64,000 nt of DNA from an uncultured delta proteobacterium (GCA_963745035.1 CAVUVW010000027.1:128001-192000), one strand, 5' to 3'. Counted from the stretch's first letter, positions 16,611-62,464 are shown. Notes: generated by a model not told the origin, from the letters alone. A program made the numbers and translations.

Positions 16611-18451
<1,841 letters not shown>

Positions 18452-30662: not shown

Positions 30663-32013
30663 ATGCGAATCGCCATTACCACGCTCGGCTGCAAGATCAA
30701 TCAATACGATTCGGCGGTGATTCAGAGCCGCTTGGAAGAAAAGCATTCGTTCGTGCCGTTCGACGCCGAGGCGGATTGCTACCTGATCAACACCTGTACG
30801 GTGACCGATCGCGCCGACTGGGAGGCGCGCCAGCTCGTGCGCCGCGCCCGGCGCTTGAATCCCGCGGCCAAGGTGCTGGTGACCGGCTGCTACGCCCAGG
30901 TGAGTCGCGGAGGAAGTCGCCGCGGTTCCCGGAGTCGATTTCGTCGTCGGCCTCAACCGGCTCGACGATCTGCTGCGCTTCGTCGAAGCGCCCGGGCGAA
31001 GTGCGCCGGCGATCGCGGTGAGCGACGTGAAACGGGAGCGCGGCGTGGCCGTGCTCGGCACGCGCGCGTTGCCCGGCCACACGCGTGCTTTTCTGAAAAT
31101 CCAGGAAGGGTGCAACTACAGTTGCACGTACTGCATTATTCCAACAGCGCGCGGGCTCAGCCGCAGCGTGGCGCCGCGCGCGGTGCTGGAGCAGGTGCGA
31201 CAGCTCGCCGAAGGCGGGTACAAGGAGATCGTTCTCACCGGCATCCATCTCGGCGGCTACGGCCATGATTTACAGCCGAAGATCGATCTGACGGCGCTGG
31301 TGGAAATGATCGCGGCGAGCGGCTTGATCGCCCGGCTGCGCTTGAGCTCTCTCGATCCGCGCGAGGCGCCCGATCGGCTGCTCGACCTGATCGCGCGCTC
31401 CGACGTCGTCTGCCCGCACCTCCATATCTGCGCTCAGGCCGGCGACGACGAGATCCTCAAGGGCATGCGGCGCAACTACGGCACCGCCTTTTATCGCGAG
31501 CTGCTCGAGCGCGTGCGCGCGCGCTTGCCGGAGGCTGCGCTGGGCAGCGACGTGATCGTCGGGTTTCCCGGCGAGACCGATGCGCAGTTCGAGAGCTCGC
31601 TCGAATATTTCGCGTCCTTGCCGCTCACCTATTTTCACGTGTTTCCGTATTCCTCCCGGCGCGGCACCGTCGCGGCGGCACTCGCCGACCCGGTGCCGCC
31701 GCGCGTAAAAAAGGAGCGGGCGCGGCGCATGCGGGCGCTGGGCGCGCGCAAAAAAGACGAATTTTGCGAAAGTTTTATCGGCCGGCGCGTCGCGGTATTG
31801 GTCGAGGAGAAAGTCGAGAAGCGAAGCGGGCTGCGTCGTGGGTTCACCCAGAATTATTTGCCCGTCGCCGTCGAAGCGGCAGACGTCAATCGAGAAATCG
31901 GCGTCTATCTCGAGCGCTACAGCGGCGGCTGGTTGAGCGGCGCGATCGCGCCCGGTGAATCAAATGCCTTGCCGCCGGCGCGCCGTTCCTGGGACCGTGT
32001 TGAAAAACGATAA
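30663..32013 (+). CDS. mtaB: tRNA t6A37 methylthiotransferase, frameshift near 30905
   Basis: TLGCKINQYD, NTCTVT, GCYAQ, KIQEGCNYSCTYC, HVFPYS.R.GT. Confidence 0.92.
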
Positions 32014-34903: not shown

Positions 34904-35794
34904 TTATGCCAATCCCATTAGCCGCGCTGGATTGATTGCGGCGACTTGATTCACCTCGCCCTGGCTCAAGCCCCCCTCGTGCAGCATGCCGAGGTACATG
35001 CGGAAGAGTTCTGCTGGGTTTGGGCTGTACGGGCGAAAGTAGTCGGTGCTGGCGATGATTTGCCGCAGGCCGACTTCGCGGAATTGTTTGACGAGCTCCG
35101 GCGAGTCCATCCGGCCCGGGGCCAGAGCGTTCCAACAGGCTTCGAGGAATGCGCCCATCTCGGCGGCGCGCTTCATCGCGTCCACGGGCATCGCGATGAT
35201 GTGGCTCTGCACGTGATTGACGACGATCCGGTGGCTGTAGCCCATGTCGCGCGCGGCTTTGATGAATTCCAAAGATTCCTGCCACGACACGTGGCCCATG
35301 CCGAGAGTGATATCGTTCGCTTTGCAGGCTTCGATGATTTCGTAGCCGCGCGGGATGAGCTTTCCTTTGTCGTCGAGGAAATAGTAATTGGGATTCTCCA
35401 GTTTGGCGTGGCTTTTATAGTACGACTTGATGCGGGCGCTGAAGCCTTTGCGCTCGACGTCGTTGCGCGCGCTCCAAGTCGGCAAAAAAACCATTTTGCC
35501 GCCGAGTTCGGCACAGGCTTCGATGATGCAGGGATTCGGCCCGCCCGCAGTGCTGTTGAGCGCGACGCTCGACCATAGCGCGACTTTGGTTTCCACCGAT
35601 GAAAGAATGTACGGCACGACGTTGACCGTCGGCCACCAGTGCGATTTCAGCACGACGCCGCGCATGCCCATCGCCTCGGCTTTGGGCAGCCAGAGAAACT
35701 CCGGCTCACGCTTGCGCTCTTTGGCGGAAAATTCGAAGTCGATATGGCAGTGGACATCGATCGCGCCTTGCATCATGTCGTCGTAAAGAGTCAT
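34904..35794 (-). CDS. Amidohydrolase-like metalloprotein (DUF6282-like)
   Basis: GAIDVHCH, GVVLKSH, GGPNP, GHVS, NH, STD. Confidence 0.7.
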   Translation of the reverse strand: MTLYDDMMQGAIDVHCHIDFEFSAKERKREPEFLWLPKAEAMGMRGVVLKSHWWPTVNVVPYILSSVETKVALWSSVALNSTAGGPNPCIIEACAELGGKMVFLPTWSARNDVERKGFSARIKSYYKSHAKLENPNYYFLDDKGKLIPRGYEIIEACKANDITLGMGHVSWQESLEFIKAARDMGYSHRIVVNHVQSHIIAMPVDAMKRAAEMGAFLEACWNALAPGRMDSPELVKQFREVGLRQIIASTDYFRPYSPNPAELFRMYLGMLHEGGLSQGEVNQVAAINPARLMGLA

Positions 35795-35811
35795 GTTGCC
35801 GCTCAAAGCAG

Positions 35812-35876
35812 GTGAGAAGTGAGGAGTAGAAGTTAGGAGCAAAGAGCGTCGGAGAATCACCTTACTCCTGACTCTT
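35812..35876. repeat. Degenerate 7-nt GTgAGgA repeats with an inverted CTnACTC arm
   Basis: GTGAGAA GTGAGGA GTAGAA GTTAGGA ... CTTACTC CTGACTC. Confidence 0.5.
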
Positions 35877-35895
35877 GTTGTTACACGTGTACTCG

Positions 35896-37188
35896 TCACG
35901 ACACGATTGTCAGACGCTCGGAGCGGGCGCCGCCGCAGCAGCGTTTATACTTCTTGCCGCTGCCGCAAGGGCAGGGATCGTTTCGTCCGGCTTGGCGGAC
36001 GGAAGCTTTTGCGTCCGCGGCGCGAACGATCTCCATCAACTTTTCGATCGGCTCGCCGGCCTCGACCAGCTCGGCGAATTTTTGAAAATACGGCTTGCTG
36101 TGGCCGAAGAATGACTTGAGGCCGGCGCAAAGATAGTTGAGCCCGTCTTCGCCGGACGGCGTCTTGATGATCCGGTCCTTGGGGCAGCCGCCGTTGCACA
36201 TGCTCAACACTTCGCACTCGCGGCAATACTTCGGCAGGCTGGTCCACTTGGCCTGGCCGAACTCGCGCTGCTTCGGATCTTCGACCATGTCCGCGAGCGG
36301 GCGATCGTGGATGTTGCCGATTTTGTACTCGGGCGTCACGTAATGATCGCAGGAATAGAAGTCGCCGTTGTGCTCGACCACCGGCACGTCGCCGCAGGTT
36401 TCGCGGTAAATGCACAGCGCGTGCTCCATGCCGAGAAACGGCCGCACCGATTCGTCGAAGAGTTGGATGAAAATCTTGCCGATATCGTGGCGCACCCATT
36501 CGTCGAAAATCGTGTTCAGAAATTTTCCATAGGCCGCGGCCGGCACCGAGCGCTTGTGGACGGGATTGGCCGGGTCGCCGGTTTTTTCGACCAGCGGCAG
36601 GAATTGCAAATACTGCCCGCCGATCTCCTTCAAGTAGCGATAGACTTGGGTCGGATATTTGACGTTGACGTCGTGGACGACGGTAAGCAGATCGACGTGC
36701 ACCTTGGCGCGCCGGAGCATGTGAAAAGCCTGGACGACTTGCTTGTGGGTCGGCTTCTGCCCCTTGGTGACGCGGTAGTGGTCGTGCAGCTCGCGCGGTC
36801 CGTCGAGGCTGAGGCCGATATAAAAATTTTCCTTGGCGAGAAACTCGCACCATTCGTCGTCGATGGTTGTGCCGTTGGTCTGAATGCCGTTGATGATTTT
36901 TTTGTCCGGCGGCAGATGCTTTTTCTGCAGCGCGACCGCCTTGCGGAAAAAATCGACGCCGAGCAAGGTCGGCTCGCCGCCGTGCCAGGAAAAGCTGACG
37001 GTTTCTCCGGGCGTCGCCTGGATATGCTGGATGATGTAGCGCTCGAGGGTTTCATCGTCGAGGCGGAAGTTGGTGCCCTTGGGATAGAGATTCTCTTTGT
37101 CGAGATAATAGCAATAGTGGCAATCGAGGTTGCAAATCGCCCCGATCGTCTTGACCATGATCTGAAACTCACGCGCCGCGGTTTCCAT
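35896..37188 (-). CDS. Anaerobic sulfatase maturase-type radical SAM/SPASM protein with C-terminal SEC-C motif
   Basis: CNLDCHYCYY, WHGGEPTL, QTNG, YSCDH, CNGGCPK, GRNDPCPCGSGKKYKRCC. Confidence 0.9.
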   Translation of the reverse strand: METAAREFQIMVKTIGAICNLDCHYCYYLDKENLYPKGTNFRLDDETLERYIIQHIQATPGETVSFSWHGGEPTLLGVDFFRKAVALQKKHLPPDKKIINGIQTNGTTIDDEWCEFLAKENFYIGLSLDGPRELHDHYRVTKGQKPTHKQVVQAFHMLRRAKVHVDLLTVVHDVNVKYPTQVYRYLKEIGGQYLQFLPLVEKTGDPANPVHKRSVPAAAYGKFLNTIFDEWVRHDIGKIFIQLFDESVRPFLGMEHALCIYRETCGDVPVVEHNGDFYSCDHYVTPEYKIGNIHDRPLADMVEDPKQREFGQAKWTSLPKYCRECEVLSMCNGGCPKDRIIKTPSGEDGLNYLCAGLKSFFGHSKPYFQKFAELVEAGEPIEKLMEIVRAADAKASVRQAGRNDPCPCGSGKKYKRCCGGARSERLTIVS

Positions 37189-37326
37189 GCTGAGGACTCT
37201 ACTCAAAAACGCCTGCGAAGTCACCACCCGCCGGGCCGTTTCGAACCCGAGGGTTCTCCCGGATAGTTGACAGATCGGCGGATTGCCATGAGAATTGCCA
37301 ATGGGCCACTCACACGACGTCAGTCC

Positions 37327-38334: not shown

Positions 38335-39096
38335 ATGACAACAATAGCCAGAACCAGTGCCGGCGACTTCTTCGACGAATGGTCGATTTACGACCAAATC
38401 CTGACCCATAACTACATGTACCACGATGATATCTTCGAGGACGTGAGGCAATTTCTCGCCGATCGTTATGCTGACGAGCGATTCAGTATCATAGATCTCG
38501 GCTGCGGCAGCGCACGTCACTTGGCGCGCGCTCTGGAAGGCCGCTCGGTCAGCGGTTATGCTGGGATACGATCTTTCGGACGAGGCGCTCCAGCACGCTC
38601 AAAAGAATCTCAGTTTTCTCGATTGCCCGGTCGATTTGCGGCACGGGGACTTGCTGGATGGGGTTAAGAATTCGGCGAGAGTTGGGATCTCGTCTTCAGC
38701 AGCTTCGCGCTGCACCACCTTTCCGCTGCGCAAAAAGCGGATTTTCTAGCTGCCTCTTATCGGCGGCTCAATCCCGATGGAATCTGTCTGGTGATCGACA
38801 CGATGCGCGATGACGGCGAGGACCGCGCGACTTACCTCGATCGATATTGCGCCTGGCTCGGCTCACGCTGCGAATCTCTGTCAGCGGACACATTAAAGCA
38901 TGTTTTCGCTCACATCCGGGCGAACGATTTTCCGGAAAGCCAAAAGGACTTTGAAGAGATGGCGGTCCGCGCGGGCTTCGCTCGCAAGACCGAGATCAGC
39001 TCGATATCGCTGGCATCACGGCTGGTGCTTGAGCAAAGGCGAAAGAGTAACGATCTGCCCTCGGCGCTGCGGCGCGCTTTGTCATTGCAATCGTAG
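38335..39096 (+). CDS. Class I SAM-dependent methyltransferase, multiply frameshifted
   Basis: IDLGCGSA, GYDLS, SSFALHHL, LNPDG, DFPE spread across three frames; end uncertain. Confidence 0.65.
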
Positions 39097-39167
39097 AGTT
39101 TACCAGGCTATTAAAACACATGACTCGCGAGTGTGCTTGTTGCCCTACCGCGGGCAGGAGGGAAGCG

Positions 39168-40509
39168 ATGATTCGGATCGTTCACATCGTCAACCAGTTT
39201 TTCGCCGGTATCGGTGGTGAAGACAAGGCCGGGGTAGGGGTTGGTGTGACCGCCGGGGCCGCAGGCGCAGCGCGCGGGCTCGAAGCGCAGCTTGGCGGCC
39301 GTGGCCAAGTCATCGCGACCATCCATTTCGGTGACAATTACTTTCACGAGCAAAAGCAAGAGGCGCTGGCGGCGATACTCGCCGAAGTGGAAAAGCAAAA
39401 AGCGGACGTGGTCGTTGTCGGTCCGGCCTTCAATGCCGGACGCTACGGGCTGGCTTGCGTGGAGATTTGCCAGGGTATCAGCGAACGCCTCGGCCTAGCA
39501 TGCGTGACGGGTATGGAGCCGGAGAATCCCGCCGTTAGTCTGTATCGAGATGCCCACAACGAGAAAGTGTTCCTGTTTCCAACCGCCGAGACGACGGCGG
39601 GAATGGCCAGTGCTTTGAAAGTTGTTACGCCGTTTGCCTGCCGTGTTGCCCTCGGTGAAAAGATCGGTACAGCGGACGCCGAAGGTTATGTAGCGCGCGG
39701 CATTCGCCGCCTGACCCAAGTGGATCGACCGGCGGTCGATCGCGCCATCGACATGCTGCTCGCCAAGGTTGCGGGCGAGCCGTTCCAAACTGAAGTGCCG
39801 ATGGAAGTCTGGGACAAGGTCGCGCCCGCTGCGCCGCTGCCCGATGCGGCTGCCGCCAATCTCGCAGTCATCTGCACAGGCGGCGTGGTGCCGTGGGGCA
39901 ATCCGGACGGGTTCAAAACCTACCGCAACACCTTCTGGCGCAAATACAATTTCGCCGAGCTGAAATCGCTCGACGTCGGGCAAGTGGGAAGCGGTGCACG
40001 GCGGCTACAACGTCGCCTTCATGAATCAGAATCCGCATTACGGCATGCCGCTCGACGCGCTGCGTTCGCTGGAAAGCGAAGGCAAGATCGGCGCCGGCAA
40101 ATTGTATCCCGCCTACTACGTCATCCCGGGCAATCAAGGCTCACCCGCAGTCATGCGCCGCGTCGGCCAGGAGATCGGCGCCGACTTGAAGAAAGAGGGG
40201 ATCGACGGCGTACTGCTCGTCGCCACGTGAGGAACCTGCAGTCGCAGCGGCGCTGTGATTAGCAAGGAACTCGATCGAGCAGGACTTCCAGTAGCGATGA
40301 TCAGCGCCATGTATCCGGTGGCGGAGCAGGTCGGCGCGAGCCGCATCGTCAAAGCAGTTGCCATTCCTCATCCGTGCGGTGATCCGAGTCTACCCGCGGA
40401 CCTCGACGGCCAATTACGCCGCGAAATCGTCGCGACGGCTCTCAAAGCTCTCGAACAAAAGGTGGATACGTCCACCGTCTTCGCGCCGAAGATCGCCGCG
40501 AGCGCATAG
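39168..40509 (+). CDS. grdB: Glycine/sarcosine/betaine reductase selenoprotein B family (Sec at UGA 40228-40230; +1 frameshift near 39980)
   Basis: NQFFAGIGGEDKA, GPAFNAGRYG, GGVVP.GNPD, HGGY, LVAT-U-GTCSRSGA, IPHPCGDP; ~446 aa after correction. Confidence 0.9.
40235..40267 (+). promoter_or_regulatory. Candidate bacterial SECIS hairpin
   Basis: cctgc-AGTCGCAGC-ggc-GCTGTGATT-a-gca-a-gg; G-initiated apical loop about 18 nt after the UGA. Confidence 0.7.
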
Positions 40510-40595
40510 GTGCTGAACGCGATCGTAGGCGTGATTCGTGTTCCGAAACAAACGGCAAGGCTCCGCGCGCTTAAATTTTACCGCTAGGAAATACC

Positions 40596-41900
40596 ATGCG
40601 CCTTGAGTTAGCGGAGTTTCCCGTTACGAGCATCTCGATCGGCGAGCGGTTTCATTATGATTCCGCTGAGCTGACGGTGGACCGCGCCGCCATCGAGCAG
40701 GCAGTCTTGGCAGAAAAGCGCATCGAAGCGGCGTGGCTCGAAGTGGTCGCGCCCGGCGATCGAGTCAGGATCACCGGCATTCGCGACGTCGTCGAGCCGC
40801 GCGTGAAAGTGCGCGGCGGCGGACAAGTATTCCCCGGCGTGCTCGGACCAGTCGAGGCGGTTGGCGAAGGCTGCACGCACCGGCTCTCCGGCATGGCGGT
40901 GTTCGTCACGGCGGAATACGAGGGCACGGTACGCGCCGGTCTCGGCGTGCAGCGGAGCGCTATCCTCGACATGTGGGGCGAGGGCGCGGCTGCTTCACCG
41001 TTCAGCGCCTTGCGCGGCGTGGTGCTCAACTTACGATTGGCGCCGGGCCTTTCCGAATTGACCGCCCACGCGATCATCCAGCGCGCCGCTTTCGAGACGG
41101 CAAAAAAATTGGCGGAAACGACTGTCGGCCTGACTCCCGCGAAGACGGAGGTCTTCGAACTCGGCGGCGCAGCGCCGGAACTGCCCAAGGTGCTGCTGAT
41201 TCAGGGTTGCCTCACCGACAGCCCTAATCCGCACTCCGGCGTGAGCTACTTCGGCTTGCCGATCCGCGATTCACTGGCGACGGTGATTCATCCCAACGAA
41301 TTTCTCGACGGCGCTTTTGCGATGTACGCCACCCGGTGCATCGCGTATTTTCCGGTCACTTGGGATTGGCAGAATCATCCGCTTCTGCTCGGCCTGTACC
41401 GCGCCCATCGGCGCCAGGTGAATTTCCTCGGAGTCATTCTGGAGCGGATTCGCTACGACACGTTTCACGGCAAGGAAGTCATCGCGCACAACACCGCGCA
41501 GCTTGCCACGCAGCTCGGCGCGGAGGCGGCGCTGATTTCGTGGCTCGGTTCCGGAAACGCTTTCGTCGACGTGATGCTGACATTGCGCGCCTGTGAGCAG
41601 CGCGGCATCAAGACCAACTTGGTCACTTACGAGTACGGCGGCAAAGATGGAGTGGACTCGCCGCTGCTGTTTTATACCGGGGAAGCGGACGCGATCACCA
41701 GCACCGGCAGCCGCGATCGCTGGATCGACCTGCCGGAGGCCGAGAGAATCGTCGGCCCCTACGAAGAGATCAAAGTGCTCAGCTATCCCGGTGCGCCGCT
41801 GACGCCGGCGCGCGGGCGTTTTACTCTCGATGCGCGCGACATGATTCTCGGCGGGGTGGATTATTGGGGCAGAGGCAATTGGACGTGCGCCGCCTATTAA
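40596..41900 (+). CDS. Glycine/sarcosine/betaine reductase component B proprotein-like (GrdE/GrdI family), copy 1
   Basis: MRLEL, PGDRVRI..IRDVVEPRVKV, THRLSG, HPNEFLDGA, QNHP, GN..VD. Confidence 0.85.
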   Translation: MRLELAEFPVTSISIGERFHYDSAELTVDRAAIEQAVLAEKRIEAAWLEVVAPGDRVRITGIRDVVEPRVKVRGGGQVFPGVLGPVEAVGEGCTHRLSGMAVFVTAEYEGTVRAGLGVQRSAILDMWGEGAAASPFSALRGVVLNLRLAPGLSELTAHAIIQRAAFETAKKLAETTVGLTPAKTEVFELGGAAPELPKVLLIQGCLTDSPNPHSGVSYFGLPIRDSLATVIHPNEFLDGAFAMYATRCIAYFPVTWDWQNHPLLLGLYRAHRRQVNFLGVILERIRYDTFHGKEVIAHNTAQLATQLGAEAALISWLGSGNAFVDVMLTLRACEQRGIKTNLVTYEYGGKDGVDSPLLFYTGEADAITSTGSRDRWIDLPEAERIVGPYEEIKVLSYPGAPLTPARGRFTLDARDMILGGVDYWGRGNWTCAAY

Positions 41901-41995
41901 GAAGATTAGTTCAGAGCTCATTCAGGCCGCTCAAGGTGTTTCCGATTCCAGCTAGCGTAGGCGGGTAAAAATATTTGATGGAGGATTGTCATTAG

Positions 41996-42985
41996 ATGGT
42001 GCGACGATTTTTGGTATTCAATTTGTTGGCGCTGGCTTTGTCCGCGGCGAGCGCGATGGCCGCGGCGCCGGCGAACAAGGTCGTGATTGCCTATTCGGTG
42101 CTGAACGAGCGCGGCACGGGAGCGCTGCTCGTGGCGCGCGATCAAGGATTTTTTCGCAAGTACGATCTCGATGTCAATTTGATTCTCATGCGCAGCGGCG
42201 CGGTAGCGCTTTCGGCGTTGTCTTCCGGAGAAGCGCATTTTTATTCCGGCTCGGCCAACGGCTCGTCGCTCGGTGCCATGGCCGGCGGGCTCGACTTGGT
42301 TTTCGTCGCCGGCTTGGCCAATCAACTGAACGGCACGATGGTCGCCGCGCCGTCGATCCGCGCGCCCGCCGATCTCAAGCGTAAAAACATCGGCATCCAG
42401 AGTATCGGCGGCGGTATCTGGATGATCACCCAATTGGTCCTCGAGCACTGGGGCCTCGATCCCAAGCGCGACGGCATCAATCTGCGCATCGTCGGCGATG
42501 AATCGGTCATGGTCCAGGCGTTGGTCTCGGGCAACATCGATGCGACCTACGCCGGGTATTCCTATGCCACCATGCTCAAGAAGCAGGGGTTCAACATCCT
42601 CGCCGATCTGACCAAGCTCGGCGTGCCGTTCCAGAGCACGGCGATCCTCGCGCGCCGGAGCTATCTGAAAACCTCGCCCGCGACCGCGGAGAAGGTGGTG
42701 CGCGCGCTGGTGGACGCGATCACGTTCATTCAGCGGCCGGCCAACAAGCCCTCGGTGGTGGCGACGTTGACGAAGAATCTGCAGATCGTGCGGCCCGAGG
42801 ATGCCGAAGAGGGCTACGAAGTGATGAAAAACGTCTACGACCGCCGCGTGTTTCCCAACATCGAAGGCATCAACAACGCGATCCGCCTGCTCGGCCTCAG
42901 CAACGAAAAAATCCGCCAGCTCAAAGGCGCGGACCTGGTCGATGACGGCATCGTCAGGAAATTGGAGAAAGAAGGAATCTTTTAG
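41996..42985 (+). CDS. ABC transporter substrate-binding protein (NMT1/TauA family)
   Basis: Signal peptide, DQGFFRKYDLDV, DLKRKNIGI, LEKEG. Confidence 0.85.
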   Translation: MVRRFLVFNLLALALSAASAMAAAPANKVVIAYSVLNERGTGALLVARDQGFFRKYDLDVNLILMRSGAVALSALSSGEAHFYSGSANGSSLGAMAGGLDLVFVAGLANQLNGTMVAAPSIRAPADLKRKNIGIQSIGGGIWMITQLVLEHWGLDPKRDGINLRIVGDESVMVQALVSGNIDATYAGYSYATMLKKQGFNILADLTKLGVPFQSTAILARRSYLKTSPATAEKVVRALVDAITFIQRPANKPSVVATLTKNLQIVRPEDAEEGYEVMKNVYDRRVFPNIEGINNAIRLLGLSNEKIRQLKGADLVDDGIVRKLEKEGIF

Positions 42986-42996
42986 TTTAACAACGC

Positions 42997-43052
42997 GTTC
43001 AACTTACGAAGGCGTTCAAACCGTTCAAAACGTTCAAGTAGTTCAAATCGTT
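42997..43052. repeat. 9-nt GTTCAAnnn tandem repeat element (copy 4)
   Basis: GTTCAA...GTTCAAACC GTTCAAAAC GTTCAAGTA GTTCAAATC GTT. Confidence 0.75.
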
Positions 43053-43107
43053 TTCGGACTCGGTTGTCGAGGCGGCCTGGAACTTCCGCGAAATTAACTC
43101 ACTATTC

Positions 43108-44415
43108 ATGCGACTCGAGATGGCAGAATTTCCGGTGCGCCGAATTCGACTCGGCGGCGCGTACCGTTATCAAGACGGCATTCTGGAAATTGACGGCGAC
43201 GATCTTGTCCGGCGGGTATTGGAAGATCCGCGTATCCGGATGGCCAAATTCGACGTCGTGACGCCGGGCGAGTCCGTGCGCGTTACCGGGATTCGCGATG
43301 TGGTCGAGCCGCGGGTCAAGCTCGGCGGAGCGGCGCAGGTGTTTCCCGGTGTGCTCGGTCCGGTGGCGGCGGTCGGCGGCGGGTTGACCCATCGTCTCTC
43401 CGGCATGGCGGTGCTCGCGACGGCTTCGTACGAGGGAACGGTGCGCGCCGGCACGGGCGTGCAGCGCAGTGCAATTCTCGACATGTGGGGGCGCGGCGCA
43501 GAAGCGTCGCGCTTCAGCTCGCTCATTCACCTTGTGCTGATTCTTGAGATAAACGAAGGTCTCGGTGAGCTCGAAGCGCACAGCGCGATTCAAACCGCCG
43601 AGTTCGAGGTCGCGCGAAAGCTCGCTGAAACGACGGCGGGCCTTGAACCGGCGCGAACGGTCCTCTACGACCTGAGCGACGGCGCCGAGCGGCGTCCCCG
43701 CGTGGTGCTGATTCAAGGCTGTATCACCCAGGCGCAGCAGCCCCATTCCGGCATCGGTTACTATGGCATGCCCATCCGCGAGTCGCTGCCGACGGCGATC
43801 CATCCCAACGAGTTGCTCGACGGTGCAGTCACGCCGAACACCACCCGAGGCATCGGCTATTATCCGACCAGTTGGGACTGGCAGAATCATCCGCTGGCGC
43901 TGGGGCTCTACCGCGAGCACGCCGCCGGCCGGCTGAGCTTCGGCGGCGTGATTCTGGAGCGCATCTCCTACGAAACCCATCAGGCCAAGGAAGTGGTGGC
44001 GCACAACGCGGCGCAGTTGGCGCGCAGCCTCGCCGCCGACGCGGCGCTGATCACCTGGACCGGCTCCGGCAATGCGTTCGTCGAGGTGATGCTGACGATT
44101 CGCGCCTGCGAGCGGTTGGGCATCAAAACCGTACTCGTCACCTACGAGTACGGCGGCAAGGACGGCGTCGATTCGCCGCTGCTCTTCTATGCCGAAGAAG
44201 CGAGCGCGGTGGTCAGCACCGGCAGCCGCGACCGCTGGATCGATCTCGCCGCGCCAGAAAAAGTCGTCGGGCCGTACGACGCCATCCGCGTCCTCAGCTA
44301 TCCGGGCGCGCCGTCCGCTCCGGCGCTCTCCGCTCTCACGCTTGACGCGCGCGATATGATCATCGGCGGCGTGGACAACTGGGGTGGCGGCGCCTGGACT
44401 TGCCGGGCTTTCTAA
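43108..44415 (+). CDS. GrdE/GrdI-like component B proprotein, copy 2
   Basis: Colinear paralogue of 40596-41900 (e.g. shared GVQRSAILDMWG, LVTYEYGGKDGVDSPLLFY). Confidence 0.85.
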   Translation: MRLEMAEFPVRRIRLGGAYRYQDGILEIDGDDLVRRVLEDPRIRMAKFDVVTPGESVRVTGIRDVVEPRVKLGGAAQVFPGVLGPVAAVGGGLTHRLSGMAVLATASYEGTVRAGTGVQRSAILDMWGRGAEASRFSSLIHLVLILEINEGLGELEAHSAIQTAEFEVARKLAETTAGLEPARTVLYDLSDGAERRPRVVLIQGCITQAQQPHSGIGYYGMPIRESLPTAIHPNELLDGAVTPNTTRGIGYYPTSWDWQNHPLALGLYREHAAGRLSFGGVILERISYETHQAKEVVAHNAAQLARSLAADAALITWTGSGNAFVEVMLTIRACERLGIKTVLVTYEYGGKDGVDSPLLFYAEEASAVVSTGSRDRWIDLAAPEKVVGPYDAIRVLSYPGAPSAPALSALTLDARDMIIGGVDNWGGGAWTCRAF

Positions 44416-44621
44416 GTTTCTCGACCCTTCCCGTCCGTGTGAAATCTTCGTGATCACCGCGCAGGCGGGCGATCCGAGCGGGATTTTTGTACCCGATTGT
44501 CTGCCTATGGCCTATAATAGCCGCGGCTCCGTAAGGTCGGCCAACTCTCTAAATTGTCATTTTCAACGACACCATCGGAGGATCGTTATCGATCCGCCGG
44601 GAGGCAACCGAGGAACTGATC

Positions 44622-47600
44622 ATGGCAAACAACATTCCGCTCAAGCTTCAAGGCACTCCGATTGCCGATCCCGGGTTGCCGGCCGCGCTGCGCGCGGCGA
44701 CGCGCGGCGCCGCCAAGGCGAGCGAATTCCTGCCGCCGGGCTATCTGAAGGTCGATGCGGCTTTCGATCTTAGCGCGCGCGCTCGGTCCACTCCCGGCGG
44801 CGCCGTGGAGAAAACGATCCAGGCTGGAGACAACCAGGTCGTCGTCCTTGAGATGGCCGACGGCGTCACCGTCATCACCAGCGCAAAAAAATTACAAGAG
44901 TCGCTGCGGCGCATCGATCCCGCCGCCATCGAAGCCGACGGCACGGCAAGATTAGCCGCCCTGCGCGAGCGCGGCGAGGCCAGCCGCGGCATCATCAGCG
45001 ACACCGTCGGCGATCTGGTATCGCGGGTATTCACGGTGACCGTCGGCGATAGCGCCGATCCGATTATCGATGCGGCGAAACGCAAGGCCGCCGAATGGCT
45101 GGGCGAGAAGGCCGAGGAGAAGATCCAGGCCTATTCCGAGCTCGGTGTCACCTGGCTCGGCACCAAGGCGCTCATGTGGGCGATCGAGAGCCGGCTGGAC
45201 CGCAAGCCCGGACTGTATCGCTGGCCGCGCGGCATGGGCGAGGCGGTAGACCTGTTGAACGTCGACGCCGACGCGCTGGCGGCGGACGCCAGGGAAGGGC
45301 CGCTGCTGATTTTTATTCACGGCACCGCATCGTCGAGTACGGGCAGCTTCGGCGATTTGCAGAAAGTCGGCCACGAAGACTGGCAGGCGCTCGAACGGAA
45401 GTTCGGCGACCGCATCTACGCCTTCGAGCATCTTACGTTCTCGCAAAGCCCGATCGAGAACGCCATCGAGCTCGCGGCCGCGCTGCCCGCGGGCGCGCAG
45501 GTGAACCTGGTGACCCACTCGCGCGGCGGCTTGATCGGCGATCTGCTCTGCCTGCGCAGCCCGGCCGATGAGCTGATCGAAAACTTCCGGTCCGATTTAC
45601 CGGAGCCGGGCGAGGTCTTGGAAGAGGAGCGCGAGCGCATCAAGAAAGAAACCGAGAACGCCCACGCCGAACAGCAAGGACAGCTCCGCGAGCTGCGCGC
45701 GCTGCTGCAACGAAAGCAGCTCGCCGTCCAACGCTACGTCCGCGTTGCCTGCCCGGCGCGCGGCACGCTCCTGGCTTCGGGCAATTTCGATATTTTTCTT
45801 TCCGCGCTGCTGACCGTGATCGGCCGGGTGCCTTACCTTTACGGCAATCCGATTTACTACGCGGTCAAGCGCATCGTGCTCGAGATCGTCAAAAACCGCA
45901 CCAATGCCAAGCTCGTGCCCGGCATCGAAGCGATGCTGCCCGAGTCTCCGATGGCGCGTTTTCTCGCCGAGGCTGCGCCGCAGGAATCAACCCGGATCGC
46001 GGTCATCGCCGGCGATATCGAAGGCGGCGGCCTGCTCAAGCGCTTGGGCGTGCTCTTCACCGACTACGCCTTTTTCAACGGCGTCGACAATGACCTGGTC
46101 GTCGATACCGACGCCATGTACGCCGGGATCGCACGGAAGGCCGGCGGGCGCGCGCTTTTCGACCAGGGCCCGACCACGTCGCACTTCAGTTATTTTCAAA
46201 ACGACGACACGCGCGCGGCGCTGCGCGATTGGCTGATCGCCGACGGCGTCGAGCAGTTGGCCACGTTCAAAGTTCTTCCTGGTGCGCGTCCCGAGCGCAG
46301 CTTAGCGGAAGAAAAGGCCCATGCGGCCGAGTTGCGGCGCAGCCGCGGCGGCGAAGCAGCCGAGGCGATCTTGCCCGTGGCGGTCGTCCTCCCGGGCATC
46401 ATGGGCTCCCATCTCTGGCGCAACGAAAGCGAGCGGGTGTGGTACCGCGTTGCCGGCTTGGTGGTCGGCGGCCTCAGAAATCTCGCATGGGGCGAGCGCA
46501 CGGGCAGCGAGAGCGGCGACGGGATCACGGCGGAAAAGCTTTTCGACGATTCCTACGGCGACCTGTGCGATCATCTCATGGAAACCCACCGTGTCGAACG
46601 CTTTCCTTACGATTGGCGCTTGCCGCTCGACATCCTCGCCGATCGCCTGGAGAGATTTTTGCGGCGGCTCTTCGAGGAAACCAAAAATCCGCAGCGGCCC
46701 ATTCGCATCCTCGCTCACAGCATGGGCGGCCTGGTGGCGCGCGCGCTGATTCACAAGCTCGCCCAGCGCCAAGACAATCTGTGGGACGATCTCATGGGCC
46801 GCGACGGCGCGCGCTTTATCATGCTCGGCACGCCCAACCAGGGTGCGCACTCGATGGTCGAGGCGCTGATCGGCAAGTCGGATACGCTGCGCAGTCTCGC
46901 CCGCATCGACGTGAGAAACGACCTGCAGAGCATTCTCGACATCATCGGTGAATTCCGCGGCGCGCTGCAGCTCCTGCCGAAGCCCGGATTTGCCGACGTC
47001 GGCGACGCCCAGTTCGACGATTATTTCACCGCTGGCGCGCTGGAGCGCGTTCAAAGAAGAGATGAAGGATTTCTGGTTCGGCGACAAGGTCGCGGCGGTG
47101 CCGACCGCCGCCGCGCTCAGCCAAGCCAAATGGCTGTGGGAGCGCGACGGCGTGCTGCCGCCGGCGCTGCCGGAGCGCCATAAAGACAAGACCATCTACG
47201 TCCACGGCTGCGCGCCGACGACCGCCTGCGGCATCAAGAAAATCGACGGCCGCTGGAAAATGGTCGGCACCGTTCGAAGGCGACGGCACGGTCACCTGGA
47301 AGTCGGGCGCGATAGACGGCATCGGCCGGCGCTATTACATGCCCGCGGTGCACGGCGATCTCGCCGCCGCCGAGGAGTATTTCACCGCCTTGGACGAACT
47401 GCTGCGCACCGGCGCCACCGGCGCGTTGATGGATCGACCGCCGGAAACGCGCGACGCCGAGGCGGCAGAACCGCGAGCGTATGAAGCAGGACCGCCGCGC
47501 TACCCCATGCCCGAAGAAGCGGCACACGCGCTGACCGGCGTGCCCAAGCGCAAGCGTCTCGCCGAGCGCGCGGTGCCGACCTTGAAGGTCGCGGTGAAGG

Positions 47601-50600
47601 CGATGGATCTGCGCTTCGTCAACCAGCCGATCATGGTCGGCCACTACGAACAGGACGCAATCTCGGGCGCCGAGTCGATCATCGACCGCGAGCTGGTCGA
47701 TAACGCGCTGAGCGAGCGCTACAACCTGGGACTTTACGCCGGTCCGGTCGGCACCGCGGTGGTCGTGCTGCGTCTGCCCAACGAAGCGGAGCGACTGCGC
47801 GGCAGCTCCTACGGCGCGGTGGTGACCGGCCTGGGCACCTACGACGGCACACTGGCGGCCAACCGGCTCACCGAGGCGGTGCGCACCGGCGCGCTGCGCT
47901 ACCTGCTCCAGTATTTCGATTGCAGCGGCGTGGGCTCTGGAGAGATCGGCCTCAGCACCCTGCTGCTGGGCTACAATTCCAGCGCCAATCTGACCATTCA
48001 AGCTTCCGTCGAGGCGCTGGTGCGCGGCGTGGTGGAGGCCAATCGCAAGTTTGCCGACGCCACCCGGCAGACTCTGCACATCGGCTCGCTGGAGATCATC
48101 GAGCTTTATCTCGATACCGCGATCTCGGCGATGCGCTACTTGCGCGCTTTCGCCGAGAAGTCCAACGGCGAGGCGCGCGGCCTGGGCGTTCGCTTGGAGA
48201 TTCCCGAGGAACTGGAACAAGACCGGAGCGTGCGGCCGAGATTGGACGATAGCCGCGCGGTCGGCCATTGGCCGCGCATGATCATCACCGACGCGGACCG
48301 TAATGAAGAAGAATGCCCGCCGGAGTGCTATGAGCGCCTTTTCCCGCCTGAGAGCTACGACGAGGGTGAGCGCGAGGATGAAAACGCGGGCGGCGAAACC
48401 AAAACGCCGGCGCGGCTGCGGCGGCGAACCGCGCTCGCCGAGCGCTTGAAATTCGTCCACGTCGGCCAGCGCGCGCGCGCCGAGACCATCGTGCAGCAGC
48501 GCCAACCCGGATTGGTGGAAAAGCTCATTGCCCAACAGATTCTGGAAAAAAACTATCGCCCGGATTTCAGCCGGACGTTGTTTCAATTGATGGTGCCCCA
48601 TGAATTCAAAGACGCCTCGCGCCAGCTCGATCGCATCGTGCTGGTGGTGGACGGATACACTGCGAATTTGCCTTGGGAGCTGATGCTGGCCGAGGACGAA
48701 CCGCTCGCGGTGCGCTCGCCGATGATCCGCCAGCTGGTGTCGAGCAAGTTTCGCCGGCAGGTGCGCCAATCGCTGCAGCCGCTCGCCTACGTGATCGGCA
48801 ATCCCTCGACCGCGAACTTTTATCGAAGCTTTCCTTCGCCGGACCGCAGGCCGTCCGAAGGATTGGTTTCGCTCGCCGGCGCCCAGGAGGAGGCCGAAGT
48901 GGTGGTCGAATCCTTGCGCCGCTACGGCTACGAGGTGGAGCAGTCGATCGGCGCGGAATATGATGCGCTCAAAGTCATCAACCCGCTGTATCAAAAACCT
49001 TATCGCATCGTGCACATCGCCGCGCACGGCGTCTTCGACGAGCGCGCGGCGGACGGCAAGAGCCGCAGCGGCGTGGTGCTCGCCGACGGGCTGCTGCTGA
49101 CCGCCGCGGAGATCGGCCAGATGGAGATCGTGCCCGATCTGGTGTTTCTCAACTGCTGCCACCTCGCCAAGGTGGACGCCCAGCCGGTCGCCTACAACCG
49201 CCTGGCCTACAGCATCTCGCGGGAACTGATCGAGATCGGCGTGCGCTGCGTGGTCGCTGCCGGGTGGGCGGTGGACGACGATGCCGCCTACACGTTCGCC
49301 GACGTGTTCTACCAAGGAATTCTCCACGAAAAACTCCAGTTCGGCGACGCCGTGTTCGCCGCGCGCAGGGAAACCTATCGCAAGCACGGCGGCAGCGTCA
49401 CCTGGGGAGCCTATCAAGCCTACGGCGACGCCGGTTGGCGCATCGACCCGCGCGAAGGCTCGGGGCGCCGGGGGCGCGGCAGCGCCGACTTTGTTTCGCC
49501 GGAGGAATTGATCGACGGCATGAGGGGAATTCGCACCGGCATCTTCCAACGGCGCGAGGCCCTGACCAAGCCGGCGGCGCGCAGCACCGCAGCGCAGCTC
49601 CAAGTGCTATTGCGCCGCGGTCCAAAGAACTGGCTCGACGATCCGGCGGTCAGCTTCGAACTGGCGGAAACCTACGCGTCGCTCGGCGCGGAATTTTTCG
49701 AGGAGGCCTGCAAACTGTACAACGTCGCGATCGCCGCCGAGGACAGGGCGCACCGCGTGCCCATCACCGCCATCGAGCAGCTCGCCAATATTGAATCAAA
49801 GCTCGGCGAAGAGATGGGCGCGCCGGATTTGATCGACCGTGCCATCGAGCGGCTTTATGATCTGGACAAAGTCGTCGCCGGGACCGTCGATTACGGCTCC
49901 GGCCGGCGCATCGAAGCAGCCGCATCGAAGGCCAACATCGAGCGCCAGTCGCTCGCTGGCAGCGCTTACAAGAGAAAAGCCGCCATCTTCGCGCGCCAGA
50001 TTCTCGATCCGCGTACGCCGGATCGGCAGGAGTCGATCAAAAAGTTCGAAGAGGCGATCGGACAGAGCATCGAGGCCTACAGAAATGCCTCGGGAGCCGA
50101 GAACGAGGCGCGTTTCGATCCGTATCCGGCGCTCAACTGGCTCGCGCTCCGGGCGCTCGACGGCGCCTACGACCAAGGTGTCGCCGTTTGCGTGCTGTGC
50201 GGCAAGAAGGCCACCGAAAAGTTCATGCGCGCCGCCAATGTTTGGAATGCCGTGATGGCCGCCGAAGCCTATCTGGTCCAAACGCTATGCGACGGCAGCC
50301 TGGGCCGACCGCGCGACGCGGGCGATCAAGCTCTCGAGGAAGTTTGGCGGCGCTACCGCGATGCCTTTGCCAACGTCCGCTTTGCGCCGAAGGACCTCGA
50401 CGCGGTGACTTTACAGCTCTGTCTGCTGGCGCTGTTTTTCGAAGCGAAAAGCGCGACCGGCACACAGGCCGCGCGCAGCAGAGCCCACGGCGCGGCGGCG
50501 CATCGCCTGCGCCGGCTCGCCGAACGAATCCAGCCGGGAAGCTGCGAGGATCCGACGCCGCCGGCGCGAGTGGAAACGGCGCGGGAGACCCTGCCCGAGC

Positions 50601-50641
50601 CGGCGGCTCCCCGGCGGCGGGCAAGGCGACGGCGACGGTAG
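44622..50641 (+). CDS. ~2005-aa protein: two alpha/beta-hydrolase (lipase-like) domains + CHAT caspase-like domain + TPR-like C-terminus; +1 frameshifts near 47035 and 47275
   Basis: IHGT/THSRGG; LPGIMGS/YDWR/AHSMGG/LGTP/GDGTV/HGDL; HIAAHG and FLNCC; LAGSAYKR, YPALNW. Confidence 0.8.
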
Positions 50642-50710
50642 CCGCGACAGCGCCGCACGGTTGCGTCGGCAGCGACGCTCCTTTATGGTCGCGGATCATA
50701 GAACGTGGCG

Positions 50711-51442
50711 ATGTCAGAAAAAGCGAAACAGATCATTCCCATCGGCGGCGGCGGGTTTTATCGCGACCCGGAGAACCTCGCGCTGGAAAAATATGTGATT
50801 GCCCAGACCGGCGCGCAAAATGCGCGCGTCGCCTTCGTGCCGACGGCGAGCGGCGAGCCGGACCATTACGTCGCGAGCTTCTACGCGGCGTTTCTGAAGC
50901 TCGGCTGCCGGCCGTCGGTGCTGACGTTTTTCAAGCGTACCCCCGATCTGCGCTCATTTTTGCTGAACCAGGATGTGATCTACGTCGGCGGCGGCAACAC
51001 CAAGAGTCTTCTCGCCGTGTGGCGCGATTGGGGCGTGGATAAGATTCTGCGCGAGGCGTGGGAGTCCGGCATCGTGCTCACCGGCGTGAGCGCGGGGGCG
51101 ATCTGCTGGTTTGCGCAGGGGGTGACGGATTCGTTTGCCGACGGCCTTTGCCCGCTCGACTGCCTGGGCTTTTTACCGGGGAGCTGCTGCCCGCACTACG
51201 ACGGCGAGCCGCAGCGTCGGCCGTCCTATCACGGACTGCTCGGCTCCGGCGCAATCGCCGCGGGCGTCGCCATCGAAGACTGGACCGGCGTTCACTTCAA
51301 GGGCGCGGAAATCCATAAGGTCGTGAGCTCCAAGCGCGGCGCTCGGGCCTACAGCATGCGCGCCGCGCACGGCTCGGTGCAGGAAGTCGCGCTGCCGAGC
51401 GAGTTTCTCGATGCCGCCGCGGCGGAGAATCGAGCCGACTAA
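50711..51442 (+). CDS. Peptidase E (S51) family
   Basis: FVPTASG, YVGGGNT, GVSAGAICW, CPHYD. Confidence 0.88.
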   Translation: MSEKAKQIIPIGGGGFYRDPENLALEKYVIAQTGAQNARVAFVPTASGEPDHYVASFYAAFLKLGCRPSVLTFFKRTPDLRSFLLNQDVIYVGGGNTKSLLAVWRDWGVDKILREAWESGIVLTGVSAGAICWFAQGVTDSFADGLCPLDCLGFLPGSCCPHYDGEPQRRPSYHGLLGSGAIAAGVAIEDWTGVHFKGAEIHKVVSSKRGARAYSMRAAHGSVQEVALPSEFLDAAAAENRAD

Positions 51443-54930: not shown

Positions 54931-55430
54931 GTACCCCAGCGCCGTTCGATCCGCTGCTGCGCTTCGCTGAGATCGAGCGGCTGGTCGCGAAAATCTACTA
55001 TCGCTTTTCGCATCTCTTTCTCTCCCGTCCCGAGCTGCGCGATTTTTGGTGGGAGATGGCGCGGGAAGAGGAGCAGCACGCCAGCATTCTGGGCGCATGC
55101 CGGGAGCTTATCGTCAATTACCAAGACGAATCTCTCGATCCCATGATCAGCAGCGAGAACGCCGACAATCTTACCGAGAGGCTTCAATCGTTTCTTAGCC
55201 GCGGTACGCCGGCGCTCGGTATCGAGGAGGCCTTCAAAATTGCGCTCGACATCGAGTGTTCCGAGATCGACGTCATATACGGCAAGTTGCTGCAGCTGGG
55301 CGGCCCGCAGATCGGCAAGACGATGGAAAACCTGGGCGTTCCCGCAGCTGTACAGAGGCAAAAACTCAAGGCCGCGCTGCGCCGCTTTTGTTCCGATCCG
55401 GAACTGCTGCGGGCCGCCGAGCTGTTCTGA
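54927..55430 (+). CDS. Ferritin-like protein
   Basis: IERLVAKIY, MAREEEQH, IECSEID; ATGA overlap with the upstream gene. Confidence 0.65.
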   Translation: MSTPAPFDPLLRFAEIERLVAKIYYRFSHLFLSRPELRDFWWEMAREEEQHASILGACRELIVNYQDESLDPMISSENADNLTERLQSFLSRGTPALGIEEAFKIALDIECSEIDVIYGKLLQLGGPQIGKTMENLGVPAAVQRQKLKAALRRFCSDPELLRAAELF

Positions 55431-55455
55431 GCCGCAATTCTCCAGTTCGATCGTC

Positions 55456-55484
55456 TTGACACATTCACCACGCGCTTCTATCTT
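55456..55484 (+). promoter_or_regulatory. sigma70-type promoter of the activator gene
   Basis: TTGACA-N17-TATCTT. Confidence 0.55.
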
Positions 55485-55551
55485 GCCGATTGCCTTGGTG
55501 AGGTACTTCAGCGAAGCGCAGTGCGATACACCCCGGTTGAGCCGGCGAAAC

Positions 55552-56497
55552 ATGGAATTTCACCTGAACAACATCATCGGTAAGAGCAAGGTGATCCGCG
55601 ACGTTTTAGATCTGGTCAAGAAGGTCGCCAATACCCAAGCGACCGTTCTGATCACCGGGGGCAGCGGCACGGGCAAGGAATTGATCGCCCTGGCGCTCCA
55701 CGCGCTCAGCGATCGCCGCGATAAGGTTTTCCTGCCGGTCAACTGCGGCGCACTTCCGGAAACCCTGCTCGAAAGCCTCCTCTTCGGGCATATGAAAGGT
55801 TCTTTCACCGGCGCCTTCGCGAATCAGGAAGGCTTGTTCGAAAGAGCCAAGGCAGGTACTATTTTTCTCGACGAGATCGGAGAAATTCCGCAGCATCTGC
55901 AGGTCAAATTGCTCAGAGCTTTGGAGGCAAAGGAGATTCTCCCGATCGGCAGCACGACGCCGCGCCGGATCGATGTCCGGGTGTTGGCGGCGACCAACCG
56001 AAATCTAAAAAACGAAGTAGAAGCCGGACGATTTCGCGAAGATCTGTACTACCGTCTCAACATCATGGAGATTCATATTCCGCCCCTAAGCGAGCGTCCG
56101 GAAGACATTCCGCTGCTGGTCGATCATTTCATCAAGCGGCACAACCCGGAACTCAAAAGAAACTTTCAGGGCATCGAGGAGGACGCCGTGCGCGTCCTGA
56201 TGTCGCTTCCGTGGAAGGGCAACGTGCGCGAACTCGATAATATCATCGAGCACACTATGATTCTCGCCGAAGGAGAGCGCATCACCTTGAAGGATCTGCC
56301 GAGCTCGATCATGTGCCAGCAGTCAGGCCCATCCCGCCTTCACCTTCAACCTCAAAGACGCGCTGCGGGAATTTGAAAAACAGCACATCTTGCGCGCTCT
56401 CGAACAGGCGAAACACGACCGAAAGGAAGCCGCCAAGCTCCTGGATATCAGTCTATCGTCGCTTTACCGGAAGATCGAAGAGCTGGATATCGACTAG
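55552..56497 (+). CDS. sigma54 enhancer-binding protein (AAA+ and Fis HTH only), frameshift near 56330
   Basis: GGSGTGKE, ESLLFGH.KGSFTGA, FLDEIGE, FREDLYYRL, WKGNVREL; HTH AAKLLDISLSSLYRK in the +1 frame. Confidence 0.88.
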
Positions 56498-57731: not shown

Positions 57732-57880
57732 ATGGCAAAAAACACCAAAGCGAAAGATATCCAGTCGGTGGTTCATGGCACCCATTCGTGGGCTTAGCGC
57801 TGGGGAGGGAGACATGGACAGGTATTTGGAGGAGTTTTTTGGCCGCAGGGCGCGTGGCCGAAACCGTGGTACGGCATTCG
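57732..57880 (+). pseudogene. Possible Hsp20 N-terminal remnant
   Basis: AAGGAGGT RBS, MAKNTKAKD, then WHPFVGL / RW / DMDRYLEEFFGRR in shifting frames; no alpha-crystallin domain. Confidence 0.4.
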
Positions 57881-57930
57881 GGCGACCCGGTCTTGATTAT
57901 TCGGTCGGTCTGACAGCACAGGAGATCACG

Positions 57931-58861: not shown

Positions 58862-58865
58862 AGCC

Positions 58866-59783: not shown

Positions 59784-59802
59784 TGACGGGGTCCGGTCCG
59801 CA

Positions 59803-60186
59803 TGGAAAGAAAAATTCTCGTTTCACCACTCAGGAGTGATCGACCCGATCTGGGCGCGGAGATCATTATCTCTTGTTGACGCGGTTGCTTTCGTCCAATA
59901 CATCGACATTGAAGCGTGAGCTCGAACAGCACAAAAAGACACTCGGGGAATTTGTCGCGGAGAAGCTCGGCGATGCGGGCGCTGGATTGAGAATGCGCCA
60001 GCTCGTCGATGCGGGCAGCCCTGTGGCGCCATTGTCGATTGCGCGGAGAAAGAAGGCGTCGACCTGATCGTCATGTCGTCCCACGGCCGGAGCGGATTGT
60101 CGCCCATGCTGGTCGGCAGCGTCACGGGTAGGCTCGTGCGTACGGCGCCCTGTCCGGTGCTGGTGGTTCCGACGGAAGCACAATAG
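59803..60186 (+). pseudogene. Degenerate single-domain USP
   Basis: Intact C-terminus VDLIVMSSHGRSG..MLVGSV..APCPVLVV; N-terminus broken by stops and frameshifts. Confidence 0.6.
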
Positions 60187-60301
60187 TAAAAATCCGGCCG
60201 GGAAGACGGTAAGGTCGAAACTGTCACCGACGTCTGGTTTCTAGCAGCAGACCCGATTGGGCCACCGCACGGCCGACTCGGAATTCTTCCACCGGTGAAC
60301 T

Positions 60302-61396: not shown

Positions 61397-61505
61397 CTCG
61401 CGATCGTGAGGAGATGAGAGGCTTGAAATCAAACTCAACGTGTTGGAAAAGCAGAAAAGCTTTTTGAGCCTCTAGCCCTGGGAAATGCGTCGCAAAGGAG
61501 ATGCC

Positions 61506-62403: not shown

Positions 62404-62464
62404 ATTTCCTCCCTACTTTTTACGGCGATACCGTTGCCCCACGATCGCGCACTAATTGCTCCGG

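Follow-up and report, generated by a model that had tools for sequence, protein, structure and literature searches.

A split gene of an uncultured delta proteobacterium is a probable selenoprotein B of a glycine-reductase-type enzyme

Introduction

In this study, we undertook a computational analysis of positions 39168-40509 (plus strand) of a 64,000-nucleotide stretch of DNA from an uncultured delta proteobacterium (GCA_963745035.1, CAVUVW010000027.1:128001-192000), the whole of which is referred to here as the window. The question raised by this locus is whether the three pieces into which the open reading frame (ORF) list (table 11) divides it, 39120-40262, 39994-40230 and 40255-40509, belong to a single hidden selenoprotein gene, as was proposed in a preliminary description of the DNA that had already recorded the three-piece break. 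Our results indicate that 39168-40509 is very probably a single gene encoding selenoprotein B, the subunit of a glycine-reductase-type enzyme that contains selenocysteine, which gene finders have cut up because a UGA is read as selenocysteine (Sec) and because the assembly carries a one-base insertion.

Results and Discussion

Structure of the gene

The start codon, ATG 39168, was assigned by homology, as the N-terminus that it gives (MIRIVHIVNQFF / MIRIVHIVNQFFAG...) fits those of homologues, and a Shine-Dalgarno-like AGGAGG (39156..39161, +), read directly from the sequence, lies 6 nucleotides (nt) ahead of it. The N-terminal part of the grdB-like gene, residues 1-269 in frame 0 (39168..39974, +), was recognized by the profiles PF07355 and TIGR01918 and by BLASTP to P0004, a protein of a different assembly. 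It is followed by the site of the one-base insertion (39975..39981, +) and by a middle part in frame 1 that ends in ...LLVAT (39976..40227, +), matches PF07355 and aligns to residues 270-353 of P0004. Next come the in-frame TGA (40228..40230, +), the putative Sec codon of residue 354, and a C-terminal stretch of 92 codons with a TAG stop (40231..40509, +), which is open and conserved in 79 related loci and matches TIGR01918. The preliminary description placed ORFs 39994-40230 and 40255-40509 in one frame, and indeed both are 1 mod 3 and join through the TGA as ...LLVAT-U-GTCSRSG...; the read-through runs ...GIDGVLLVAT-U-GTCSRSGAVISKELDRAGLPV... as far as TAG 40507-40509. Across both breaks, the GrdB-like protein would comprise 446 residues (353 + U + 92) and carry Sec at position 354, and the earlier estimate of Sec near residue 354 of about 446, reached after removal of one indel, proved exact in the read-through translation.

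Family profiles extend over all of these parts. The GRDB model PF07355 (cut-off 22 bits) matched the frame-0 piece at 1.5e-82 and 278.1 bits (profile positions 2-264 of 347) and the frame-1 piece at 6.1e-19 and 69 bits (positions 266-347 of 347), the Pfam model stopping at the TGA. TIGR01918, the NCBIfam model for 'glycine/betaine/sarcosine/D-proline family reductase selenoprotein B' (cut-off 65.45 bits), scored 243.1 bits on the N-terminal piece and 169.5 bits on the piece spanning the TGA (profile positions 264-430 of 431). Since the latter match continues across the TGA, the 92 codons 3' of it belong to the same protein. The proposed membership of the GrdB family is borne out by both profiles and by the 79 related loci, and relatives from Binatia metagenome-assembled genomes (MAGs) have already been named selenoprotein B by NCBI (P0039). 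No paper linking Binatia to a glycine-reductase-type enzyme was found among the open-access papers listed, and a search of PDB by sequence gave no match for the C-terminal piece or for P0004.

The UGA codon

A scan of genome contigs identified 80 related loci (L numbers below), 79 of which reach the codon homologous to 40228-40230, L030 ending before it. In the alignment at this Sec/Cys site, the codon is TGA in 79 of 79 loci and a Cys codon in none, and in every one of them the TGA is followed by 84-110 open, conserved codons starting with G-T-x-x-R-x-G. The set spans 85% down to 39% identity and includes Clostridium asparagiforme, Desulfosporosinus paludis and two Sporomusa genomes; the loci of these cultured genomes hold GrdX, GrdA, GrdC/D and TrxA/B, with selA in L059. 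The absence of a Cys codon from the 79 loci fits the report in PMC1794560 of few or no Cys homologues of GrdA and GrdB in Sec-containing organisms; deltaproteobacteria, Syntrophus aciditrophicus for one, are among the GrdB carriers named there. For the Olavius symbionts, no GrdB is listed in PMC1976440. In addition, the segment GTCSRSGA, which lies between the TGA and GTG 40255 and hence ahead of the ORF called there, is kept as protein among the homologues.

Public gene calls end at this TGA, as follows from the lengths of the best 120 database proteins: 103 are exactly 353 residues long and the longest do not exceed 364, in a search that allowed for up to 469. A global reassignment of UGA was rejected because TGA is the stop of 18 of the 43 Pfam-backed ORFs in the window. 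The reading of TGA 40228-40230 as selenocysteine is, on this comparative evidence, well supported. A screen of the window for a second selenoprotein, which looked for TGA codons flanked by open frames on either side, gave 87 candidates, 11 of which were left after a filter on third-position GC content; no obvious motif was seen in those 11, in a screen that is weak, the grdB TGA itself having failed the filter.

The hairpin

In bacteria, the selenocysteine insertion sequence (SECIS) has a spacing of 16-37 nt and a G in the apical loop. The hairpin that follows the UGA here agrees with both features, its loop GGC starting 18 nt 3' of the UGA. It has a 9-bp upper stem (40240-40248 / 40252-40260) with two G-U pairs, the loop GGC (40249-40251) and two lower stems, and the RNA folded from the UGA has a minimum free energy of -21.4 kcal/mol. 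The conserved core, delimited by the fold and by pair counts, is a 7-bp stem (40242-40248 / 40252-40258) around that loop (40242..40258, +). The upper stem and loop are therefore present at 40240-40260 as the preliminary description had stated, and the core is kept with covariation; the extended lower stem that it also described exists in the window, but is only partly conserved and is largely peculiar to the window and its nearest relatives.

The covariation was identified in an ungapped alignment of the 57 nt from the TGA in 80 sequences, 78 of them distinct. Pairs 16-30, 17-29, 18-28, 19-27 and 20-26 are standard in 78 of 78 distinct sequences, while pair 21-25 is formed in 76 and pair 15-31 in 72. 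Compensatory changes occur at three stem pairs, namely 18-28 (C-G in 41 sequences, U-A in 37; n = 78), 19-27 (U-A in 42, A-U in 35, U-G in one; n = 78) and 15-31 (U-A in 62, G-C in seven, C-G in two, A-U in one). Pairs 18-28 and 19-27 occur in the alignment in each of their four possible combinations, which implies more than one event. The loop is GGN, with G22 and G23 invariant in the 80 sequences. The covariation score of 0.209 was reached by none of 500 shuffles, and when the 3' partners were slid as a control pairing was 31-41% versus 79.4%. Column 27 is the third position of an Ala codon, where the change is synonymous, and it tracks column 19, where a Ser (AGC) or Cys (TGC) codon starts. 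Within the close clade, the 19-nt stem-loop AGTCGCAGCGG(C/T)GCTGTGAT is nearly invariant, whereas the adjacent third positions of Gly, Thr and Cys codons vary freely. The hairpin occupies the same place in the mRNA as the canonical grdB hairpin, to which it is linked through the compensatory changes. Rfam gave no match at gathering score in the whole window, and around the hairpin only three chance-level matches (E 0.53-3.6), so that no Rfam model fits it.

Clade and neighbouring genes

A quick maximum-likelihood tree of 75 loci and the window, from which the truncated L009 and L030 and the frame-broken L021, L026 and L032 were left out, placed the window beside L001 (Shimodaira-Hasegawa-like approximate likelihood ratio test, SH-aLRT, 97), within an 8-row group (100) that lies in a 27-row clade (100). 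The genomes of this clade are those of uncultured "delta proteobacterium"/Binatia, and its loci often adjoin luciferase-type monooxygenases, Rieske oxygenases and flavin reductases. The motif U-x-x-C-x-x-S is found in 27 of 27 clade rows, in the window as UGTCSRSG. The UxxC motif that had been reported is thus present, as U-G-T-C with Sec354 and Cys357, but the UxxCxxC given as the GrdB motif in PMC13188914 is not, its third position being Ser.

Directly downstream of the grdB-like gene, in an operon-like layout, are two grdE-like genes on the plus strand with a transport gene between them. The first, of 434 residues (40596..41900), matches PF09338 at 3.4e-85 and has a single Cys in ...YATRCIAYFP; the second, of 435 residues (43108..44415), matches it at 1e-86 and has no Cys at the cleavage region (...NTTRGIGYYP). 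Their PF09338 scores, 286.5 and 291.6 bits, lie far above the cut-off of 22.2, whereas their matches to the GrdG model (197 and 190 bits; cut-off 780) and the FarE model (98 and 95.6 bits; cut-off 675) are weak. The gene between them (41996..42985, +) encodes an NMT1/SsuA-type periplasmic solute-binding protein of 329 residues (Pfam NMT1 4.6e-19; TIGR01728 SsuA_fam 65.4 bits, below its cut-off of 163.5). A scan of 38900-44700 for promoters and terminators gave counts no higher than in shuffles.

According to PMC10838667, pyruvoyl self-cleavage needs two conserved Cys, and FarE and GrdI, which are without them, are no proproteins. In the canonical proteins L061 and L063, the cleavage region reads SGNCVAACDK; neither window copy has this Cys pair, the first having one Cys, two places off in the ungapped comparison, and the second none. 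The TRC form of the region occurs in the grdE-like gene directly 3' of grdB in the window, L002, L018, L021, L008 and L027 and the TRG form elsewhere, in a survey by regular expression that missed several loci. By analogy, canonical processing of the GrdE-like partners is improbable, which would argue against a substrate that needs a Schiff base.

The order grdB, grdE-like, NMT1-type binding protein, grdE-like is common to the window, L002 and L018, while other subclades have the orders NMT1, grdB, grdE, DUF5940 protein or solute-binding protein, grdE, grdB, luciferase-type monooxygenase. In tblastn, the DUF5940 protein is GrdC-like (375-404 bits), and a GrdA-like gene comes after it in L007, L008, L010, L012, L013, L025 and L028. 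Of the 32 clade loci (L001-L032), 7 thus have both genes behind grdB-grdE, and L031 has the GrdA-like gene only. All eight GrdA-like genes have an in-frame TGA in C-F-V-U, and no GrdD-like gene was detected beside them. Several genomes have more than one grdB locus, only some of them with grdC and grdA (L007/L011/L031 and L027/L028). This partial pairing fits the common reductase of PMC10838667, in which several protein-B complexes, each specific for its substrate, are described as feeding one reductase.

Two further observations concern the surroundings of these genes. Upstream, on the minus strand (34904-37227), a radical S-adenosylmethionine (SAM)/SPASM protein of the anaerobic-sulfatase-maturase type with a C-terminal SEC-C motif (TIGR03942, 473.7 bits) stands beside a DUF6282 protein, and the pair is 88.6% and 82.4% identical to a pair upstream of grdB in L002. 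As a radical-SAM gene is also described in the fluoroacetate reductase operon (PMC10838667), a link of the window gene (35896-37227, -) to the reductase is a lead only. Downstream, genes for an 853-residue DUF7379/alpha-beta-hydrolase and an 1100-residue CHAT-TPR-S protein (44622-50641, +) separate the second grdE-like gene from a gene of the Peptidase_S51 type (50705-51442). The L018 counterpart of this S51 gene, 83% identical, directly follows the second grdE-like gene, and therefore the genes at 44622-50641 look like an insertion of ~6 kilobases (kb).

Substrate of the encoded enzyme

The preliminary description had compared the gene with clostridial GrdB, GrdF and GrdH. The comparison holds for the family, for the position of Sec and for UxxC: Table 2 of PMC3091704 gives Sec 350 of 436 for GrdB and 352 of 440 for GrdH of C. 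sticklandii, in agreement with the claim of a clostridial UxxC near residue 350, and the window has Sec 354 of 446. Further likenesses are a family-profile match that runs from end to end and takes in the part past the Sec codon, the position of the hairpin and the adjacent GrdE-type gene. However, the gene is not a close copy of the clostridial ones but part of a separate UxxCxxS clade. Its protein is 39-47% identical to the loci of cultured Firmicutes, has ATU in place of STU ahead of Sec and UxxCxxS where PMC13188914 gives UxxCxxC, and is encoded beside two GrdE-like genes and an NMT1-type gene rather than GrdX, GrdA, GrdCD and Trx. In addition, it falls below three equivalog cut-offs, with scores (two pieces, added by hand) of 213.6 + 158.1 bits for the GrdB model TIGR01917 (cut-off 602.2), 238.8 + 156.9 for the GrdF model NF040794 (800) and 215.4 + 146.8 for the GrdH model NF040795 (775). 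The grdB-like gene falls within the known selenoprotein B family, but it is no equivalog of GrdB, GrdF, GrdH, PrdB or FarB.

Could the gene nonetheless encode an ordinary B subunit of glycine, sarcosine or betaine reductase? The source names of close matches ("glycine reductase", "betaine reductase") would suggest so, as would the adjacent GrdE-like partner and the fact that GrdF and GrdH are the best-scoring specific models. We consider this unlikely given scores so far under the equivalog cut-offs, the separate clade with its SH-aLRT of 100, the UxxCxxS motif, partners without the NC...C cleavage cysteines of canonical proproteins, and the lack of nearby GrdX, GrdA, GrdCD and Trx genes, unlike in L059, L061 and L037. 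Because of the sub-cut-off scores, the UxxCxxS motif and the partners without canonical cleavage cysteines, it is improbable that the substrate is glycine, sarcosine or betaine as in clostridia. Possibly, the clade represents a protein-B module for a new substrate of this enzyme class in organisms other than the classical amino-acid fermenters, and we tentatively put forward, as part of the same proposal, that this is a substituted acetate, for example a sulfonated or quaternary one, distinct from glycine, sarcosine, betaine, proline and fluoroacetate.

The one-base insertion

The gene carries the single indel that had been described, one extra base at ~39975 relative to nine related loci. Homology leaves frame 0 after ...FAELKSLD and resumes in frame 1 at GKWEAVHGGYN (GKWEAVHGGYNVAFMNQNPHYG...), the window having GAC G TCG GGC where relatives such as L001 have GAG TCG GGC. 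The placement is based on DNA and protein comparison with L001-L007, L018 and L027, which does not distinguish which exact base is the extra one. P0004 is unbroken here (...SLDAGKWEAV...); it is 99% identical to the N-terminal query in the search table, and BLASTP gives 98% identity to the window ORF for the first 272 residues. The frame-1 part is ~98% identical to P0004, with no decay past the shift.

Other genes on the plus strand of the window are broken in the same manner. The ftsH gene (16858-18451) is divided into an AAA piece and a Peptidase_M41 piece by one extra base at ~17539, between ...DPALL and RPGRFDR..., and a miaB-like gene (30663-32013) into a UPF0004 piece in frame 0 and a Radical_SAM piece in frame 1, with the switch near 30900 (...VTGCYAQV then ...AEEVAAVPGVDFVVG). 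Directly upstream of grdB, a SAM-methyltransferase-like gene (about 38350-39096), which is syntenic with L002:6139-7245 and whose pieces had no Pfam matches, goes out of frame at ~38569 and is back at ~38686, the mark of two compensating indels in a tblastn comparison with the L002 protein. The insertion at ~39975 is most likely an error of the assembly and not a feature of the organism, because the 99%-identical P0004 is intact and because these other genes are broken likewise. Frame-broken grdB genes also occur in the long-contig MAG loci L021:10001-11060, L026:10001-11058 and L032:9797-10859, and a luciferase-type gene is frame-broken in L017:1942-3019, likewise from a long-contig MAG, which suggests the same kind of assembly error in these four. 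Gene calls from an assembly with several one-base errors in a single window need frameshift-aware handling.

A true pseudogene, with a genuine insertion that has ended production of the selenoprotein in this strain, is an improbable alternative. The insertion stands in the sequence as given and lies outside any long homopolymer, but besides the intact protein of the other assembly, the frame-1 part has neither additional stops nor decay after the shift, and the breakage of essential or housekeeping genes (ftsH and the miaB-like gene) in the same way points to assembly error. Programmed +1 frameshifting was rejected, as relatives are without the extra base at the site.

Weighing of the selenoprotein assignment

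Several points weigh against the assignment of 39168-40509 to one selenoprotein B gene. The frameshift is present in the sequence as given, and the breaks in the ftsH, miaB-like and methyltransferase-like genes are not at homopolymers. No selA, selB, selD or tRNA-Sec was found within the 64-kb window by tRNA scan, SelA search or Pfam domains, so that Sec decoding, like the pathway after protein B, is putative for the source genome; the window has no tRNA gene of any kind, and the sole one among L001-L032 is a tRNA-Ser in L011. Likewise, GrdA, GrdC, GrdD, GrdX, TrxA/B and SelA were absent from the window, as they were from the 15-21 kb available for L001, L002, L018 and L021 and from the smaller amounts of DNA for other near relatives. 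The stability of the hairpin is ordinary (z = -1.39; 15 of 200 shuffles fold as well) and the fold of a single sequence therefore proves little, so that the evidence for it is the comparison, in which the covariation counts are of sequences and not of independent events. Lastly, the chemistry and the partner roles discussed below are drawn by analogy from clostridial enzymes that are only 39-47% identical.

That the TGA is instead a genuine stop, the commonest in the window and the place where public gene calls end, with a 353-residue protein before it and a separate or meaningless 84-codon ORF from GTG 40255 after it, is barely credible, since the 92 codons past it are in frame, conserved in 79 of 79 loci and matched by the family profile without interruption, GTCSRSGA is conserved as protein ahead of that GTG, and a covarying hairpin sits exactly at the expected position of a bacterial SECIS.

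Comparison with other systems

The module shares several traits with FarB/FarE of Cloacibacillus porcorum as described in PMC10838667. Both are stand-alone protein-B modules that have a transport gene of their own and presumably deliver to a shared GrdA and GrdC, both have a radical-SAM gene of the anaerobic-sulfatase-maturase type nearby, and the partner, like FarE and GrdI, is without the cysteines for a pyruvoyl group. The selenoprotein has, like FarB, lost CxxC cysteines, but the window protein keeps the first Cys (UxxC). The two modules also differ in that the window transport gene encodes an ATP-binding-cassette-type binding protein and not a major facilitator superfamily antiporter, that the window radical-SAM gene is three genes off on the opposite strand, and that the FarE model scores are well below cut-off.

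With PrdB of D-proline reductase (TIGR04483), homology covers the C-terminal half and takes in the Sec region (81.3 bits), but the score is under the cut-off of 300, and PrdB, 242 residues long in Table 2 of PMC3091704, is without the N-terminal 200 residues. NF041545, a GrdB-related putative oxidoreductase without selenium, resembles the N-terminal ~130 residues (82 bits), but again below its cut-off (175), and with its 171 residues it has no Sec region.

Proposed mechanism

On the evidence of the alignments and the hairpin, the ribosome would read UGA 40228-40230 as Sec because the mRNA folds, 18 nt on, into a short GGN-loop hairpin, as in grdB of cultured selenoprotein-making bacteria, and the product would be a protein of 446 residues with Sec354 in U-G-T-C. 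The subsequent steps are modeled on the family, following the reductase mechanism (Andreesen) as summarised in PMC13188914 and PMC10838667. The GrdB-like protein and one or both of the downstream GrdE-like proteins may form a substrate-specific protein B, in which the selenol of Sec354 would attack the alpha-carbon of a bound substituted acetate so that the substituent leaves. The resulting carboxymethyl-selenoether would be resolved with Cys357 and passed to GrdA and then GrdC, yielding acetyl phosphate, with GrdA and GrdC presumably encoded elsewhere in the genome. Import of the substrate is suggested by the gene for a solute-binding protein that stands between the grdE-like pair.

Other features of the window

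Elsewhere in the window, downstream of a sigma-54 activator gene (55240-56376), a universal-stress-protein (Usp) cluster at 57775-63642 comprises a CBS-domain gene and five ORFs with Usp domains, which are in tandem in two of the five; the GC content falls to 0.51 at 56-58 kb. A 743-residue ORF (4302-6533, +), to which the AT skew of -0.264 at 4-6 kb is due, has no Pfam match, a very hydrophobic N-terminal membrane part and a C-terminal part that looks, by eye, like a spermidine-synthase-type methyltransferase.

Conclusions

Our results demonstrate how selenoprotein genes vanish from annotation, as 103 of the best 120 database proteins related to this gene end at the Sec codon and not one continues past it. 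Provided that Sec decoding holds for this genome, this uncultured lineage would need selenium. If the assignment made here is correct, the lineage would also carry a glycine-reductase-type module whose substrate stands apart from the known ones.

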